64,000 nucleotides of DNA from a candidate division WOR-3 bacterium (GCA_965649295.1 CBFGKH010000008.1:1-64000), one strand, 5' to 3'; positions 1 to 7,597 are shown, numbered from the stretch's first letter. Notes: generated by a model from the letters alone, not told the origin. Numbers and translations: made by a program.

Positions 1-1
1 G

Positions 2-2695
2 AGGAGTGAGAATGCACTACCGACAGACAGTTCTCTGGCAGAAGGCGATGCAGGCGGCGCAAGAGGTTTACCGCCTGGCACCCCGGATACCCAGGGAAGA
101 GACGTACGGCATGAGGTCGCAGATTACGCGCGCATCGGTATCGATTCCGGCGAACATTGCCGAGGGCTGGACGCGCGAGACGAACAGAGACAAGGCGCAG
201 TTCCTGGCAATCGCTCAGGGCTCGCTCGCGGAGGTGGAGACACTGCTGACGCTTTGCGAGAGCTTCGGATGGTTCCCACCGGAAGAGACGGGACACCTGC
301 GCAACCTGCTGGACGAGGTAAGTCGGATGCTGACGTCAATGCGTCGGAAGCGTCGCAACACCTGACCTCCCACTCCTCGCTCCTCTTCGCTCGCTCCTTC
401 CGCGGAGCGCAGGGGCTTGCCGAAGATGTGCGCCACTATGGCGAGTGGATGCGCAATGAAGCCGAAAAGCGAATCGGTCATCTCTACCCAAAGGTTAAGG
501 TCACGGCCGAAATGGCCAAAGACCGGCCTGATCTGAAGCAATATGTTGGCAAGGAACTCACAGTCATCGCCTGGCTCTGGGCGCGCACGGTCAAAAGCCC
601 TAATCCTGCTTTCAGGAACGTAGACGTGCCGCTGGTCTCCAACTTCATGCTCTCGAAAAAGCGAGGCAAAGAAGCCTACGTCGAGCCGGTGATAGAAGGC
701 AACGGCTACCGCTTCACCGTAAAGACAGGCAAGCCCAAAGACGCCAAAGCGGCGAAAAACGGGACCAAACTCGCCCGCGGCGCCAACTTCCGCTGCATCA
801 TGTCAGGCGCAACAATCCCCGGTGACTACATCAAGAAAGAGGGCAGGTCTGGCCGCATGGGAGCGCGGCTGATGGCAATCGTCGCGGAAGGCAAACGTGG
901 GCGGGTGTACCTTTCGCCCACGCCCGAGCACGAGGCCATGGCAGGCAGTGCTCAGCCGACGTGGCGACCTGAGCAACCTCTGCACGGCAAGGCTCGCGAC
1001 CAAATGCCGCTATACGGCATGGAGACTTTCGCCGACCTCTTCACCCCCCGCCAGCTTGTTGCCCTGACGACTTTTTCGGACCTGGTGCAAGAGGCACGCG
1101 AGCGGGTGAAGCGTGACGCAGTCGCCGCCGGGTTGCCGGACGACGGCATCCCATTGCGCGACGGCGGAACCGGAGCAACCGCCTACGCCGAGGCGATCGC
1201 GGTGTATCTGGCGTTTGCCATCGACCGGATGGCTGACTTCAATTGTAGCCTAAGCAGTTGGAAGCCCAGCGGTCAACAGCAGATGCATCTGTTCGGGAGG
1301 CAGGCCGTTCCGATGGTCTGGGACTATGCAGAGGCGAATGTTTTCTCCGATAGGGCAATTTGCTGGCATAATGCAGTCGAGATGACAGCCAGCTCGCTTG
1401 AAGTCACGGCTGTCGGGGAGCCAACCACGACATCTGTTCGACAACTCGACGCGGCTGCATCCCTTCCTGTTGCAGGTCCACTGCTCTTGAGCACCGACCC
1501 GCCCTACTACAACAACATCGGCTATGCCGACCTCTCGGACTTCTTCTATGTCTGGCTGCGCCGCTCGTTGCAGCTGGTGTTTCCCGACCTGTTCGCTACA
1601 GTCGCGGTACCCAAAGCAGAGGAACTGGTCGCCACACCATATCGCACCGGCGGCGATGCTAAAAAGGCCAGAGACAACTTCGAGGATGGATTCCGACGGG
1701 CATTCACCCTGTTCCGGCAGAATCTCGACCCGCGGTTTCCTATGACTGTGTACTACGCTTACAAGCAGTCTGAGGAGGATGACGAGGATGGTGCTCGGTC
1801 GTCATCTGGCTGGGAAACAATGCTGGAATCATTGGTGTCCACCGGCTTCGAGGTAACTGCTACCTGGCCGGTCCGGGCGGCGCAGAAGTGGCGAATGGTC
1901 AGCATGGGAACGAATGCGCTCGTTTCTTACGTAGTAATGGCGTGCCGTATCCGTCCTGACGATGCGCCAATTGCTACACGGAAGGAGTTTGTCTCCCAGT
2001 TGAGAAAGGAACTGCCCGATGCCCTGGCTAAGCTGCAGCAGGGGAACATTGCGCCGGTGGACTTTGCGCAGGCGGCAATCGGGCCGGGAATGGCGGTCTT
2101 CTCGCGGTTCGCTAAGGTAATCGAGGCTGACGGCTCGCCAATGACCGTGCGCGTCGCGCTCCAGATTATCAATCAGGAGCTTGATGCCTATCTTGCCGAG
2201 CAGGAGGGCGAGCTGGATAGGGAAACGCGGTTCTGTGTAGCGTGGTTTGGCCAGCACGGAACAGACGAAGGCGAGTTCGGCCAGGCCGATGTGCTGGCCC
2301 GGGCGATGAATACCGCGGTGAACGGCTTGGCCGAGGCCGGCGTCCTTATCGCCAGGGCAGGCAAGGTGCGGCTGCTCGGACGCGATGAGTTGCCCGAGGA
2401 CTGGGACCCGGTGAAGGATAAGCGCCTGACCGTCTGGGAATGCACCCAGCAGTTGATTCGCGCGCTGGAGCAGGGCGGCGAGCAGGCCGCGGCCGCGCTG
2501 GTGAAGAAGCTCGGCACGGGCAAGAGCGAGGAGGCGCGGGCGTTGTCTTACCGGCTGTATTCTATCTGCGAGCGGAAGCAGTGGGCCAAGGAGGCGTTGG
2601 CATACAACGGCCTTGTCATTGCCTGGCCCGAAATACTGAAGCTGGCCGAGTCGAGCAGGCCGGCCGAGACCGGCAAGCTGTTCGGAGAGGAGTAA
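2..2695 (+). CDS. DUF1156-family adenine-specific DNA methylase, 5'-partial; frame is open from position 2
   Basis: GAQGLAEDV..YG.WMR..AEKRIGHLYP block, TVIAWLWARTV, catalytic TDPPYY, C-terminal GNIAPVD..QAAIGPGMA. No stop codon in this frame between 2 and the ORF-finder start at 254. Confidence 0.88.
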   Translation, partial: RSENALPTDSSLAEGDAGGARGLPPGTPDTQGRDVRHEVADYARIGIDSGEHCRGLDARDEQRQGAVPGNRSGLARGGGDTADALRELRMVPTGRDGTPAQPAGRGKSDADVNASEASQHLTSHSSLLFARSFRGAQGLAEDVRHYGEWMRNEAEKRIGHLYPKVKVTAEMAKDRPDLKQYVGKELTVIAWLWARTVKSPNPAFRNVDVPLVSNFMLSKKRGKEAYVEPVIEGNGYRFTVKTGKPKDAKAAKNGTKLARGANFRCIMSGATIPGDYIKKEGRSGRMGARLMAIVAEGKRGRVYLSPTPEHEAMAGSAQPTWRPEQPLHGKARDQMPLYGMETFADLFTPRQLVALTTFSDLVQEARERVKRDAVAAGLPDDGIPLRDGGTGATAYAEAIAVYLAFAIDRMADFNCSLSSWKPSGQQQMHLFGRQAVPMVWDYAEANVFSDRAICWHNAVEMTASSLEVTAVGEPTTTSVRQLDAAASLPVAGPLLLSTDPPYYNNIGYADLSDFFYVWLRRSLQLVFPDLFATVAVPKAEELVATPYRTGGDAKKARDNFEDGFRRAFTLFRQNLDPRFPMTVYYAYKQSEEDDEDGARSSSGWETMLESLVSTGFEVTATWPVRAAQKWRMVSMGTNALVSYVVMACRIRPDDAPIATRKEFVSQLRKELPDALAKLQQGNIAPVDFAQAAIGPGMAVFSRFAKVIEADGSPMTVRVALQIINQELDAYLAEQEGELDRETRFCVAWFGQHGTDEGEFGQADVLARAMNTAVNGLAEAGVLIARAGKVRLLGRDELPEDWDPVKDKRLTVWECTQQLIRALEQGGEQAAAALVKKLGTGKSEEARALSYRLYSICERKQWAKEALAYNGLVIAWPEILKLAESSRPAETGKLFGEE
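12..365 (+). CDS. Four helix bundle protein (23S rRNA intervening-sequence protein family), nested in the methylase frame
   Basis: Motifs LWQKAM, P.EETYG..SQI.RA.VSIPANIAEG, F..IAQGSLAEVET; GAGGAG RBS at 1-6 before ATG 12. Confidence 0.9.
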   Translation: MHYRQTVLWQKAMQAAQEVYRLAPRIPREETYGMRSQITRASVSIPANIAEGWTRETNRDKAQFLAIAQGSLAEVETLLTLCESFGWFPPEETGHLRNLLDEVSRMLTSMRRKRRNT

Positions 2696-2698
2696 CCT

Positions 2699-5600
2699 GT
2701 GGCTTTGAGCAATCAGCAGCGGGTCGGCGCGGCATTAGACCTGCTTGTCGCCGGTCTGGCGCCTTTTGTTGAGCGGGAGATGAAGGCAGTGCTGGGCGAG
2801 TCGTGGGTCGAGTTCGCAAAGGACTCCCTGCACGAGGACCAGTATCCGAAAAAGGGCAGGGGCGTGAAGTGGGACGCTCAGGCTCTGTTGACGGTGATGT
2901 GGGACAAATGGAACGAGGTGTTCAAGCGGGTGCTCGGCCATTCTGAGCGTTCGCTGGTGAGTGAGCTGCGCGAGGTGAGAACCAAGTGGGCGCACCAGGA
3001 AGCATTCTCTTACGACGACACCTATCGCGCCCTCGACAGCATCGCCCGGCTCCTGCAGGCAGTCTCAGCCGAGCAGGCAGCCGAGGTGGAAAAGCAGCGT
3101 GACGAGGTGCTGCGGGTCAAGTTCGACGAACAGCGCCGTAGCGTGTCGCGGCGGATGGAACCCGGGATTGGGGGCACGCCGCTGGCTGGCTTGAAGCCGT
3201 GGTGCAACGTGGTTACACCGCATCCGGATGTTGCCTCAGGCAACTACCTCAAGGCCGAGTTTGCGGCCGACCTCTGGCAAGTCTATCAGGGGGGGGCGTC
3301 GGCCGAGTATCAGGACCCGGCCGAGTTCTTCCGCCGGACGTTCCTGACTCAGGGCCTGACCGGGCTGCTCCTGCCCGCGGTCAGGCGGCTGAGCGGCGGC
3401 ACCGGGATTCCGGTTGTCCGGCTCAAGACCAACTTCGGCGGCGGCAAGACCCACTCCCTGCTGGCCCTTTACCACCTGTTCTCCGGCGTGGCCGCGTCCG
3501 AGTTACCCGGAATCGACGCAGTCCTGAGCGAAGCAGGACTGACCCTGCCGAAAAACGTGAAGCGGGCGGTCATCGTCGGCACCAAGATTGCTCCGGGCAC
3601 CGAACACAAGAAACCGGACGGGACCATCGTCCGCACGCTCTGGGGCGAGATTGCCTGGCAACTGGGCGGCAAGGAGGGGTACAAGCTCGTCGCTGACTCA
3701 GACAAGACCGCGACCAATCCCGGCGATGCCCTGCACAAGCTCTTTGCCAAGTACGCGCCCTGCCTCATCCTGATTGACGAATGGATTGCCTATGCCCGGC
3801 AGTTGCACGACAATGCCGACCTGCCCGCTGGTACGTTTGACGTGCAGTTTACCTTTGCCCAGGCATTGAGCGAAGCAGCCAAGGTCGTGGACAAGACAAT
3901 GCTGGTGGTCAGCGTGCCTGCCTCAGACAACGAAATCGGCGGGGACCAGGGACGCCGGGCACTCGACAGCCTGCAACACGCCCTGCAGCGCGTCGAAGAG
4001 CCGTGGCATCCTGCCAGTCAGGTAGAGGGGTTCGAGATTGTCCGGCGCCGATTGTTCCAGCCAATTACCGGCCGGGAGCAGACCGCAATGCGCGATGCAG
4101 TGGCCCGCGCCTTTTCCGAGATGTACCAGGCCCAGCCTCAGGAGTTCCCGTCGAACTGCCGCGAGGCAGCCTATGAGCGGGACATGATCGCGGCCTATCC
4201 GATTCACCCGGAGTTGTTCCACCGGCTGTACAACGACTGGTCCACGCTCGACCGGTTCCAGTGCACCCGCGGCGTGCTACGCCTGATGGCCTCAGTTATC
4301 CACACGCTCTGGGAAAGGCAGGATCCGAACCTGTTGATAATGCCGGCCAATGTGCCGATTGACGACCCGGTCGTGAAATCGGAGCTGACCCGCTATCTGG
4401 AACAACAGTGGGACGCGGTTATCGACAACGACGTTGACGGCACACACTCGCAACCGCTGGCCCTCGACCAGGAGAACCCGAACCTCGGCCGCTACTCAGC
4501 CTGCCGCCGTGTCGCTCGTACTATTTTCCTCGGCACCGCACCGCTGTCCCAGGCCCCGACTAGGGGCATCGACGACCGGCGTATCAGGCTCGGCTGCGTC
4601 CAGCCGGGCGAGAGCCCCGCAATCTTCGGCGACGCGCTCCGGCGTCTGACCGACCGGGCAACATATCTCTACGTTGACGGCAACCGTTACTGGTACTCGC
4701 TGCAGCCGACTGTTGCGCGTCTGGCCGAGGACCGGGCCGGGCAGCAGAAGCCCGAGGACATACATGCCGAAATCGAGAAACTGCTCAAGGCTGACGCACG
4801 TCAGCTTGGTGACTTTGTGAGCGTGCACGCCTGCGTATCAAGCGCTGACGTGCCCGATGAAGAAGGCGCGCGCCTCGTCATCCTCGGCCCGGCGTACACG
4901 CATTCGGCGAAGGCCGAAGACAGCCCGGCTCGTATCGAGGTCGCTGCCATCCTGGACAAACGTGGCAACAGCCCGCGCGAATACAAGAACACGCTCGTCT
5001 TCCTCGCGCCGGACGCGGTCAAGCTCAGGGACCTTGAGACAGCAGTCAGACAGGTCCTGGCATGGGAGTCGATCAGTCGTGACCGCGAGGAGCTCAACCT
5101 CGACCAGTTCCAGTTGCGCCAGGTCGAAACCAAACTCGAGCGTACCCGGGAAACGGTCAAGGTTCGGTTGCCGGAGACTTACCAATGGCTGCTCGTGCCA
5201 ACCCAGCACGACCCCAAGGACAAAGTCGAATGGCAAGAGTTACGACTGCAGGCACAGGACTCTCTTGCGCCGCGGGCGTCGAAGCGGCTGATTCGGGATG
5301 AAGCCCTGTTGACCCAGATGGGCGGCTCGCGTTTGCGCGTCGAGCTCGACCGAATCCCACTGTGGAGAGGGAACCACGTGGCAGTTCGTCAGTTGGCCGA
5401 GGACTTCGCCAAGTACTTGTATCTGCCGCGCCTGCGCGATTCCAAGGTCTTAGTCGAGGCCATCGCTGATGGCGTGGCGCAGCTATCTTGGCAAAGTGAC
5501 ACTTTTGCCTACGCGCAGGCCTGGGACGAGAAGACGAAACGCTATCTCGGACTAACCGCCGGCACGCGTTGCCGTGTGTTGTTGAATGACAGTAGTGTCG

Positions 5601-5980
5601 TGGTCAAGCCGGAAATCGCCAAGGCACAGTTGGACGAGGACGCCCGGAAGCGTGGAGAGACGCCCATCCCCGCGACCGGCGAAGGTCTGGCGCCAGATGA
5701 AACCGGGGCCAGGGGCGAATCAAAGCCAGCCGAGGTAAAAGCGAAGCAAAGGCGGTTCCACGCCACGGTGAGCCTTGACGCAAACAGGATGGCCCGAGAC
5801 GCTGGCCAGATTGCCCAGGAAGTGCTACAGCACATCACCACGCTGCCTGGTGCCGATGTAACGGTGACCCTCGAAATCAGCGCCACCGTACCTGACGGCG
5901 TCCCCGACAAGACTATCCGCATCGTCACTGAGAACTGCCGCGCCCTGAAGTTCGGCACATTCGATTTCGAGGAGGAGTGA
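2699..5980 (+). CDS. Swt1-like HEPN plus DUF499 AAA+ ATPase (restriction-like defence system component)
   Basis: N-terminal RTKWAH (RxxxxH), EFAADL, Walker A TNFGGGKTH, Walker B LILIDE, YPIHPEL; adjacent to DUF1156 gene. Confidence 0.88.
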   Translation: MALSNQQRVGAALDLLVAGLAPFVEREMKAVLGESWVEFAKDSLHEDQYPKKGRGVKWDAQALLTVMWDKWNEVFKRVLGHSERSLVSELREVRTKWAHQEAFSYDDTYRALDSIARLLQAVSAEQAAEVEKQRDEVLRVKFDEQRRSVSRRMEPGIGGTPLAGLKPWCNVVTPHPDVASGNYLKAEFAADLWQVYQGGASAEYQDPAEFFRRTFLTQGLTGLLLPAVRRLSGGTGIPVVRLKTNFGGGKTHSLLALYHLFSGVAASELPGIDAVLSEAGLTLPKNVKRAVIVGTKIAPGTEHKKPDGTIVRTLWGEIAWQLGGKEGYKLVADSDKTATNPGDALHKLFAKYAPCLILIDEWIAYARQLHDNADLPAGTFDVQFTFAQALSEAAKVVDKTMLVVSVPASDNEIGGDQGRRALDSLQHALQRVEEPWHPASQVEGFEIVRRRLFQPITGREQTAMRDAVARAFSEMYQAQPQEFPSNCREAAYERDMIAAYPIHPELFHRLYNDWSTLDRFQCTRGVLRLMASVIHTLWERQDPNLLIMPANVPIDDPVVKSELTRYLEQQWDAVIDNDVDGTHSQPLALDQENPNLGRYSACRRVARTIFLGTAPLSQAPTRGIDDRRIRLGCVQPGESPAIFGDALRRLTDRATYLYVDGNRYWYSLQPTVARLAEDRAGQQKPEDIHAEIEKLLKADARQLGDFVSVHACVSSADVPDEEGARLVILGPAYTHSAKAEDSPARIEVAAILDKRGNSPREYKNTLVFLAPDAVKLRDLETAVRQVLAWESISRDREELNLDQFQLRQVETKLERTRETVKVRLPETYQWLLVPTQHDPKDKVEWQELRLQAQDSLAPRASKRLIRDEALLTQMGGSRLRVELDRIPLWRGNHVAVRQLAEDFAKYLYLPRLRDSKVLVEAIADGVAQLSWQSDTFAYAQAWDEKTKRYLGLTAGTRCRVLLNDSSVVVKPEIAKAQLDEDARKRGETPIPATGEGLAPDETGARGESKPAEVKAKQRRFHATVSLDANRMARDAGQIAQEVLQHITTLPGADVTVTLEISATVPDGVPDKTIRIVTENCRALKFGTFDFEEE

Positions 5981-6526
5981 TTCGCCCGGCGGCCATAGTC
6001 CGGTGAAGCTGTAGCCCACCGCCCAAGAATCTAGCCGAAGCCAAACAGGCGCTAGAACTAAGCTAGTAGCATTTCTACTATCCTAAACTCTTGGCTGCCG
6101 CGGCGATTGTCGGTGATTGGAAGTAGGGCACTATTGGTGTGGCGGGTGAAGACAGAATCGAGCCACTGCAAGTGGGCAAGTGACGACCAAGTAGAGAGTT
6201 ATCGAGATAGCGCCGGAAATCGGCCAGTTCTCGCCAGCAGTTCGGAAACCCGTATTATATAACCATACAAGGGGCAGCGGTCTGACCGAAGGTGGGCCGT
6301 CTTTTGTGACTGGTGTTCCGTAGTAACAACCTTGAAAGGGAGGTGACTGTGAATTGCACCAACGCGCAGGCTGTCGGCAAGACAAACCCTTTCCCCAAGC
6401 GAGCAGACGAGGCATATGGCGGTCAAGCAATAAGAAGAGTAGTTCAGTGTTTCGCCGGTCAGATGATTGGGCATTTGTATCCTGGCCCTTCTGGCATCGA
6501 AGGGCTGTTTTGGCGAGGAGGCGGAT

Positions 6527-7138
6527 ATGCGGGCGCAGGGCAGTAAGGACAGTGAAGAAAGTAGAGAACTGAGTTCCGCAGCAGTGAATGAGGCAGTGAA
6601 ACGGGTGCTGGCCGGCGATGTTGAGGCGTATTCGGTGGTCTATCTGGCGACTGATGGCCGGTTGCGGGCGTTTGTGCGCTCGCGGTTCTGGGCCTATGGT
6701 CCGGAGTTTGCCGAGGAGGTGGCGGTGCGAACCCATGAGCGGGCCCTGGCACGGTTGGTCGAGTTTGATGCCAGCCGTTCGTCGTTTCCAACCTGGCTTT
6801 GCTGGCAGGCCCGCAATGTGGCCGGTCAGGTGCGCCGGGAGTGGTTTGACCCGCGGCTGGTGTCAAGCGATGAAGAGTCCGAGCGGGCCGTCGCTTCGGT
6901 GCCGGGCCCAGAGGAGTTGCACGATTCGGCCGAGCGTGGCCGCCTGCTTGCGGAGGAGTACCGCCGACTGGAGCAGAAAGGCCGGCTGAGTATTGCGCTA
7001 CACGATATCGAAGGGCTTTCGTTCACCGCGGCGGCCAAGCGGGCTGGGATGTCACGCTGGCGGCTGTCGCGGCTGCGCGAGAGGGCCCTGGCCCTGTTGC
7101 GAAAAAGACTGCGCCGAATTGGCATCAACGGTGTATAA
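6527..7138 (+). CDS. Divergent ECF-type sigma-70 factor
   Basis: AGDVEAY, FDASRSSFPTWL (region 2) and IEGLSF..AA...GMS (region 4 HTH); GAGGAG RBS before ATG 6527. Confidence 0.72.
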   Translation: MRAQGSKDSEESRELSSAAVNEAVKRVLAGDVEAYSVVYLATDGRLRAFVRSRFWAYGPEFAEEVAVRTHERALARLVEFDASRSSFPTWLCWQARNVAGQVRREWFDPRLVSSDEESERAVASVPGPEELHDSAERGRLLAEEYRRLEQKGRLSIALHDIEGLSFTAAAKRAGMSRWRLSRLRERALALLRKRLRRIGINGV

Positions 7139-7225: not shown

Positions 7226-7597
7226 ATGAGCAATCCGACGAAGCGCATCGCCCGCTGGAATGCGAAGTACAACACCGAGCGGGTGAAGGAGACGCTCGAT
7301 TCTCTCCGACCGGATATGCTCCAGTCGGTGGTGGCGACGTTTCCGCAACTGGCCGACATGGAGACGCAGGTGAAGCAGGTGCTGGACGGGCTGGGACTGC
7401 CAACGGTGAACTATCCGTTCTACCTGGCGTATGGCCGCGAGCTGTTCCGGCTGACGCGCCAGGGCATCTCGGGTGAGTCGGTGGCAATCGAGGCTCAGGT
7501 GCTGCTCGAAAAATGGGTGGCACGCGGACTGGTACGGTCGGCGCTGGAGAAAATCCGCAAGGATGTCTTCAACATCACCGCTCCCATCACGCCGTAA
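7226..7597 (+). CDS. Small alpha-helical protein resembling the SIRV2-type archaeal virus major capsid protein
   Basis: AAGGGGG RBS; basic N-terminus KRIARWNAKYN, VKQVLDGLG, YLAYG, SG in the order recalled for the rudivirus coat protein; followed by a terminator. The CDS is well supported, the homology call is by eye. Confidence 0.65.
   Translation: MSNPTKRIARWNAKYNTERVKETLDSLRPDMLQSVVATFPQLADMETQVKQVLDGLGLPTVNYPFYLAYGRELFRLTRQGISGESVAIEAQVLLEKWVARGLVRSALEKIRKDVFNITAPITP

Follow-up and report, generated by a model that had tools for sequence, protein, structure and literature searches.

The window analyzed here, which comprises the first 64 kb (64,000 nucleotides) of contig C8 from a candidate division WOR-3 bacterium, begins inside a gene for a DNA methyltransferase (Table 1). 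The frame that is open from position 2 passes SSLLFARSFRGAQGLAEDV into the methylase and meets its first stop codon at 2693-2695, and the amino-methylase motif DPPY is located at 1496-1507 in the hmaB body. A second gene, with an ATG at position 12 and a TGA at 363-365, lies within this frame. The four-helix-bundle (4HB) protein that it encodes matched PF05635 above the cut-off (E 2.5e-35), TIGR02436 (E 3.7e-35), and the PDB entry 2GSC (E 5.9e-20), and its mean pN/pS value against 35 homologs was 0.28. The host-frame codons across 11-364 encode an insert rich in G, A, D, R, and S, and nucleotide similarity to the closest insert-free relative, G018, begins only at position 401. A 4HB coding sequence nested in a stop-free methylase frame, as described in the initial annotation, was seen in the sequence, in the ORF list, and in the profile matches, and we confirm that the 4HB gene is nested within the open frame of hmaB, the methylase gene of a probable Hma defense system. 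Gene callers retain just one of 2 overlapping frames, and conserved nesting of genes longer than 100 codons is, to our knowledge, rare in bacteria.

Table 1. Features at the left end of the window
Feature	Position	Strand	Description or basis
Visible end of purine-rich left arm (GAGGAGT-type heptamer), cut by contig start	1..11	+	Sequence
Host frame: hmaB-type DUF1156 DNA methyltransferase, 5' end open	2..2695	+	ORF list; 75% identical to insert-free P0002
Nested four-helix-bundle (4HB) gene (23S rRNA IVP / S23p family)	12..365	+	117 aa; +1 frame relative to methylase
Pyrimidine-rich right arm, imperfect heptamers; host-frame reading TSHSSLLFARS	366..398	+	Sequence; co-variation
hmaB conserved body	401..2695	+	blastn 83-86% to insert-free allele of relative G018
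hmaC (DUF499 AAA+ ATPase)	2699..5980	+	Pfam PF04465 and PF18731; PADLOC HmaC 1077 bits

The nested gene is bracketed by complementary heptamer arms, which we found at 1-8 and 371-384 as first described, together with 2 further units. The sequence GAGGAGTG (1-8) is the reverse complement of 371-378, and the right arm consists of the heptamers CACTCCT (371-377) and CGCTCCT (378-384) followed by 2 imperfect units that extend to 398. A Shine-Dalgarno-like GAGGAG is located 5 nt upstream of the 4HB start codon. In the minimum free energy fold of positions 1-420, the first 8 bases were paired with the right arm (8 bp visible), and this fragment, whose left arm is truncated at the start of the contig, folded no better than shuffled sequences (z +0.49). 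Complete left arms built from this type of heptamer were present in the related loci L047, L067, and L026; those of L047 and L067 gave the best pairing with the right arm of the window.

Because the locus is situated at the start of contig C8, the left junction and approximately the first 200 codons of the methylase gene are out of view. The N-terminal half of the methylase was absent from all 19 contigs in tblastn searches with 2 homologous N-halves as queries. On contig C6, an hmaA gene with 87% identity to hmaA of G018 is broken off after 408 codons by the contig end, and the gene order in G018 is hmaA, one accessory gene, hmaB, and hmaC, a pattern that fits an assembly gap better than a loss. 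The 5' part of hmaB probably falls in the gap between contigs C6 and C8; the hmaB body and hmaC are located on C8 and the 5' part of hmaA at the end of C6, with the linkage inferred from G018. A full-length insert-bearing homolog (L047) scored as HmaB with PADLOC. The hmaC gene starts 4 nt past the end of hmaB, and its product contains an N-terminal Swt1-like HEPN domain. Further downstream, a 223-aa ORF with no Pfam match (6467-7138) precedes a 123-aa ORF (7226-7597) with a weak match to a Sulfolobus virus coat protein model (E 7.1e-5, below the cut-off).

Taken by itself, the open host frame in the window was mildly unusual, with P values of 0.014-0.066 under 4 synonymous null models, and a fraction of 0.018 of the 2826 genome windows of equal length were open in the same frame. 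A single-locus chance of about 1.4-6.6% is indecisive, and the case for overprinting rests on the homologs. These were collected with a DNA pattern search in which the 4HB motif was joined to the downstream methylase motif while the frame was left free. The search identified 36 metagenome and 20 genome loci, 56 in total, with record titles from Proteobacteria, Chloroflexota, Acidobacteriota, Armatimonadota, Deinococcota, Spirochaetes, Planctomycetes, and others. Of these 56 loci, 55 shared the +1 frame for the 4HB gene. Two checks suggested in the initial annotation, a survey of how often such inserts preserve the host frame and an examination of insert length modulo three, were run on this set: the methylase frame was single and unbroken in 46 of the 48 loci with both flanking motifs, and the length of the intact inserts was always a multiple of three. 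The host frame was open to the contig edge in 5 further loci, and all 44 distinct nested coding sequences that were scored were open in the host frame (44/44).

Five of the 56 loci were not intact. L022 was without one left-arm heptamer and was otherwise near-identical to the intact loci L026 and L034, while L028 and L055 contained small indels and L017 and L046 an upstream rearrangement. Such loci may represent assembly errors or dead copies. It was also noted that the one-heptamer difference between L022 and L026/L034 shifts the methylase frame, reflecting either an assembly collapse or a 7-base slippage.

The arms were purine-rich on the left side and pyrimidine-rich on the right side across the loci, and the heptamer word changed on both sides together. 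The mean duplex energy of cognate arms from 39 distinct loci was -36.0 kcal/mol, compared with -27.0 +/- 1.0 kcal/mol for permuted pairs (0 of 5000 permutations), and the median rank of the cognate pairing was 5 among the 39 distinct pairs, with poor pairing in L013, L017, and L056 (rank 36-38 of 39). The complete cassette in L047 formed a long closing stem (z -3.96). Long arms showed repeats of 3 heptamers (L026, L031, and L032), whereby the host frame is kept. The arms run into the host codons and the junction is not fixed. A Shine-Dalgarno-like word preceded 25 of the 38 distinct nested start codons. A search of L047, L040, and L067 against Rfam, introns included, gave no match at the gathering threshold.

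A second PF05635 gene was identified in the same genome, outside the window (G000:C8 about 96740-97150; L012:2241-2648, minus strand). This gene is free-standing, located between the genes for a Cys/Met PLP enzyme and threonine synthase, and the frame that stays open in the nested copies is here interrupted by 2 stops. Its flanking repeats differ from those in hmaB and extend into the first codons of the threonine synthase gene, and the idea that the heptamer is specific to the genome was therefore unsupported.

A comparison with 120 homologous proteins placed the insertion site in a variable loop between IEIPP and W-x-GAQGLAEDV. The distance from IEIPP to the D is usually 36 codons in these proteins, versus 164-206 codons in the unbroken insert-bearing loci. 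The site falls between the FAGGG/DLNP motifs and DPPY, and a break at this position would part the SAM-binding from the catalytic motifs of a methylase. Both halves must be joined in a single chain for the enzyme to work, as the insert comes between the SAM-binding motifs and DPPY. The insert-bearing methylases retain the N-terminal and catalytic motifs, with about 66-78% identity to insert-free ones, and in P0085, a full-length methylase, the insert resembles the host-frame peptide of the window. Residues 194-335 were unstructured in an AlphaFold model of L047, although this weak model counts for little (pTM 0.44; low confidence around the catalytic motifs too; insert backed by 3 of 80 rows), and a Foldseek search with it gave no match at E ≤ 0.001. 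Other inserts were observed in the same hmaB loop, including a stretch of about 130 aa of unknown nature in P0094 and a Y1 transposase-like domain in P0059; P0046, P0064, P0089, and P0090 were grouped with these 2, and the group includes short G/E/R-rich stretches.

A profile of the host-frame peptide matched 503 cluster representatives at E ≤ 0.001. Among the best 150 of the 503, 95 matches of at least 240 aa each were annotated, whereas the remaining 55 were shorter and many of them look like stray ORFs over free-standing genes. The 95 proteins comprised 82 DNA methylases, 1 HmaA protein, 4 hybrid histidine kinases, 2 Ser/Thr kinases, 4 others, and 2 unassigned proteins, and the methylases were of the DUF1156/HmaB (13), type II/IIG/PglX/MmeI-like (54), and type III Mod-like (15) types. 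These matches are at the protein level and cover the host-frame peptide. A word-index search with the insert region recovered only 2 proteins among 1348 candidates. The kinases that carry the host-frame peptide are P0140, P0162, P0212, P0244, P0149, and P0220; the insert splits the HATPase domain in P0140, P0212, and P0244 and lies between the catalytic loop and DFG in P0220. In several other proteins, such as the DNA polymerase III alpha subunit P0261, the insert is located near the C-terminus, and these cases may mark disruptions. We also noted an apparent arms-only remnant in the HisKA region of P0212, an HmaA helicase fragment (P0126) containing the host-frame peptide of the same 4HB clade, and a 4HB gene from outside the hmaB clade that occupies the equivalent frame within a type IIG restriction-methylase gene (L076:2-3139, minus strand) of G021, a genome of the same family.

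To assess selection in the 2 frames, codon tests were performed on 18 representatives with less than 80% identity (median 68%), omitting L028, L035, L046, and L055, in which the coding sequence is cut or shifted. The pooled counts, which overstate significance because the loci share ancestry, gave 0 host-frame stops versus 50.9 expected, and 99 versus 81 expected in the unused frame. Despite the shared ancestry, the synonymous sites were far diverged (pS 0.51-0.76). A wobble T was found at none of 350 sites where it would create a host-frame stop, compared with 228 of 1223 sites elsewhere in the nested genes, whereas the corresponding counts in 12 GC-matched free-standing genes were 41 of 223 stop-making sites and 164 of 755 others. 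Stops in that frame were present in 29 of 30 other 4HB genes from the phylum of the window (206 stops in total), and the sole open case was the type IIG-nested gene in L076.

The composition of the host-frame peptide was also constrained. A wobble T was used at 51 of 625 sites where it gives Cys, Trp, Tyr, or Phe in the host frame and at 145 of 480 sites where it gives Ser, whereas both controls were flat (98/423 vs. 55/257 and 721/3796 vs. 338/1853). The 51 Cys, Trp, Tyr, and Phe residues observed compare with 100.6 +/- 5.6 in within-gene permutations kept free of stops, with values below the permutation mean in 16 of the 18 loci (2 vs. 5.4 in the window). No such depletion was seen in the free-standing genes (98 observed vs. 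88.5 expected) or in L076 (5 vs. 4.7), and a broader test of hydrophobicity was weak, with mean z scores of -0.7 (GRAVY) and -0.5 (FWYCLIM). The conserved frame is that of the 4HB gene, with identities of 0.62-0.79 versus 0.31-0.48 for the host-frame peptide. Both frames are under selection: the 4HB protein is under purifying selection, and the host frame is stop-free and constrained in composition. An explanation of the +1 nesting by unavoidable stops in the other frame was rejected, as a stop was forced in only 3 of the 18 representatives. It is more likely that +1 is preferred because the alternative frame yields a poor peptide, with 27% Arg and 16% W/C/F/Y versus 2.4%.

The insert-bearing methylases were scattered in a FastTree phylogeny of 144 rows inferred from a stretch that may be mosaic: the 34 rows with an insert required 22 changes, 17 of which were forced by strong branches. 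In a tree based on few columns, and with free-standing controls from one phylum, the 42 hmaB-nested 4HB proteins, including that of the window, formed one group with a support of 93, apart from the 29 free-standing proteins. Together with the onset of similarity to G018 only at position 401, these patterns suggest that one or two nestings may have been followed by loop exchange between hmaB alleles or by repeated loss. No nuclease, recombinase, or other mobility enzyme was identified in the cassette. The cassette had originally been called mobile; its patchy distribution on the tree supports that term, and the route of spread that we propose, homologous exchange of the loop between conserved flanks among hmaB alleles, is inferred.

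We consider it probable, on the strength of the sequence comparisons, that the methylase frame is read through across the nested 4HB gene, which provides the best explanation of the locus. Ribosomes would read the methylase frame straight across the insert to produce a full-length methylase, which would gain about 130-170 residues as a predicted disordered, soluble loop and would presumably be active with it. The 4HB protein would be made separately from the internal start. The arms may pair in the mRNA and cover the internal ribosome-binding site until a ribosome in the methylase frame opens the stem. By analogy with its relative Avd, one guess is that the 4HB protein binds this stem.

Of the 2 routes in the initial annotation, which had placed an IVS-like cassette in a variable loop of the methylase, readthrough is thus the one retained, while the constraint on the host frame speaks against the stem-loop being mainly removed or bypassed. 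If the cassette were cut from the mRNA with re-ligation, or bypassed by the ribosome, the insert-free methylase would be the working form and readthrough a back-up. The co-varying arms, the long closing stem, and the multiple-of-three length of every intact insert are in line with such a process, and a cassette of the same build is cut by RNase III in 23S rRNA (PMC4990558). However, with the insert removed or bypassed, selection would no longer act on the host frame against stops or against Cys and the aromatic residues, and a removed insert should gather host-frame stops, whereas 0 were found against the 51 expected and the peptide is constrained in composition. It is this absence of stops together with the depletion of Cys, Trp, Tyr, and Phe that favors readthrough over excision. 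Furthermore, the excision of IVSs as described leaves the rRNA fragmented (PMC4990558), no Rfam family, introns included, reached the threshold in the 3 loci searched, and the arms enter the host codons without a fixed junction. We regard excision or bypass as unlikely.

It is quite unlikely, in our view, that the frame is kept open only against polarity on hmaC or to hold ribosomes, with the insert-bearing HmaB being inactive. The 4-nt spacing between hmaB and hmaC would fit such a role, and a methylase role for HmaB is unproven: as reported, HmaB is absent from about 15% of Hma-like systems, and its over-expression left T4 infection unaltered in one assay (PMC11232893). On the other hand, the N-terminal and catalytic motifs persist in the insert-bearing methylases (about 66-78% identity to insert-free ones), the depletion of Cys, Trp, Tyr, and Phe points to selection at the protein level, and what appears to be the same nesting extends to methylases of the PglX, type IIG, and type III kinds as well as to kinases.

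A plain disruption of the window locus, with the upstream half lost or out of frame and the remaining frame open by chance, is very unlikely. The absence of the upstream half from the assembly, the single-locus probability of 1.4-6.6%, and the 5 broken loci among the 56 would allow it, but the 4HB gene of the window groups with the hmaB-nested copies and shares their site and frame, hmaC and the downstream part of hmaB are intact, and contig C6 ends within an hmaA gene 87% identical to that of the relative. There is hardly any chance that the insert is an intein-like element spliced from the protein: it resembles inteins in being stop-free, in frame, and patchily distributed at one methylase site, but the host-frame peptide has a single invariant column in 18 sequences and no Pfam family match, Hint/intein domains included, conservation tracks the 4HB frame (0.62-0.79 vs. 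0.31-0.48), and Cys is depleted.

Beyond readthrough in hmaB, we put forward a broader and more doubtful proposal: the cassettes may be widespread nuclease-free mobile genes overprinted in protein genes and spliced neither as RNA nor as protein, with synonymous sites tuned for a harmless loop. The 4HB protein might then recognize the heptamer hairpin, drive the spread of the cassette, and be translationally coupled to the host gene, and the arms could act as 7-base slippage switches for defense methylases and signaling kinases. With dozens of natural replicates, the family allows selection on both frames to be measured, and it would represent a third route, besides introns and inteins, by which an insertion can persist in a protein gene. 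It offers a direct approach to what the very common PF05635 protein does and to how loop modules are exchanged among anti-phage methylases (Hma, BREX PglX, type IIG, and type III). Some of the long "disordered insertions" annotated in methylases and kinases would be the shadows of a real second gene.

In a literature search limited to the main text of openly available papers, no 4HB gene was described as lying within a protein-coding gene. The insertions reported for the Hma system HmaA-HmaB-HmaC are whole genes between the hma genes (PMC11232893), whereas the present insertion is inside hmaB. PF05635 has been linked to Avd, the accessory protein of diversity-generating retroelements (DGRs) (PMC10053308). 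The 4HB protein of the window shares a homologous fold with Avd and has weak matches to the bAvd and DivGenRetAVD models, but it does not reach their curated cut-offs (32.9 vs. 40 bits and 32.2 vs. 80 bits), and the neighbors seen here are Hma genes.

Two other systems are closer. The ORF-bearing IVSs of 23S rRNA, as described in PMC4990558, share with the cassette the PF05635 family, a similar size (428-444 nt in the IVSs), complementary terminal arms, and heptamer repeats before the start codon that vary in number; closing-stem arms as in the IVSs were seen in the complete homologs, with 8 bp visible in the window. They differ in that the host is an rRNA, excision is by RNase III, and the ORF is reported to be decaying and probably not expressed (PMC4990558), whereas the present cassette is located inside hmaB, its host frame is open and compositionally constrained, and the 4HB gene is under purifying selection. 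In the ShiLan domain and the Pacc40 gp60 insertion, an HNH gene lies out of frame within a phage DNA methylase gene whose own frame has no stops; the reported distribution is patchy, a signature of splicing is lacking, and a loop is predicted in the host protein (PMC11855218). The HNH endonuclease explains homing in that case (PMC11855218), whereas the present cassette has no nuclease (only PF05635 and bAvd-like matches), carries heptamer arms, and appears to occur in several unrelated families of cellular genes. The overprinted cassette combines these 2 known kinds of element, the ORF-bearing IVS and the out-of-frame methylase insertion.
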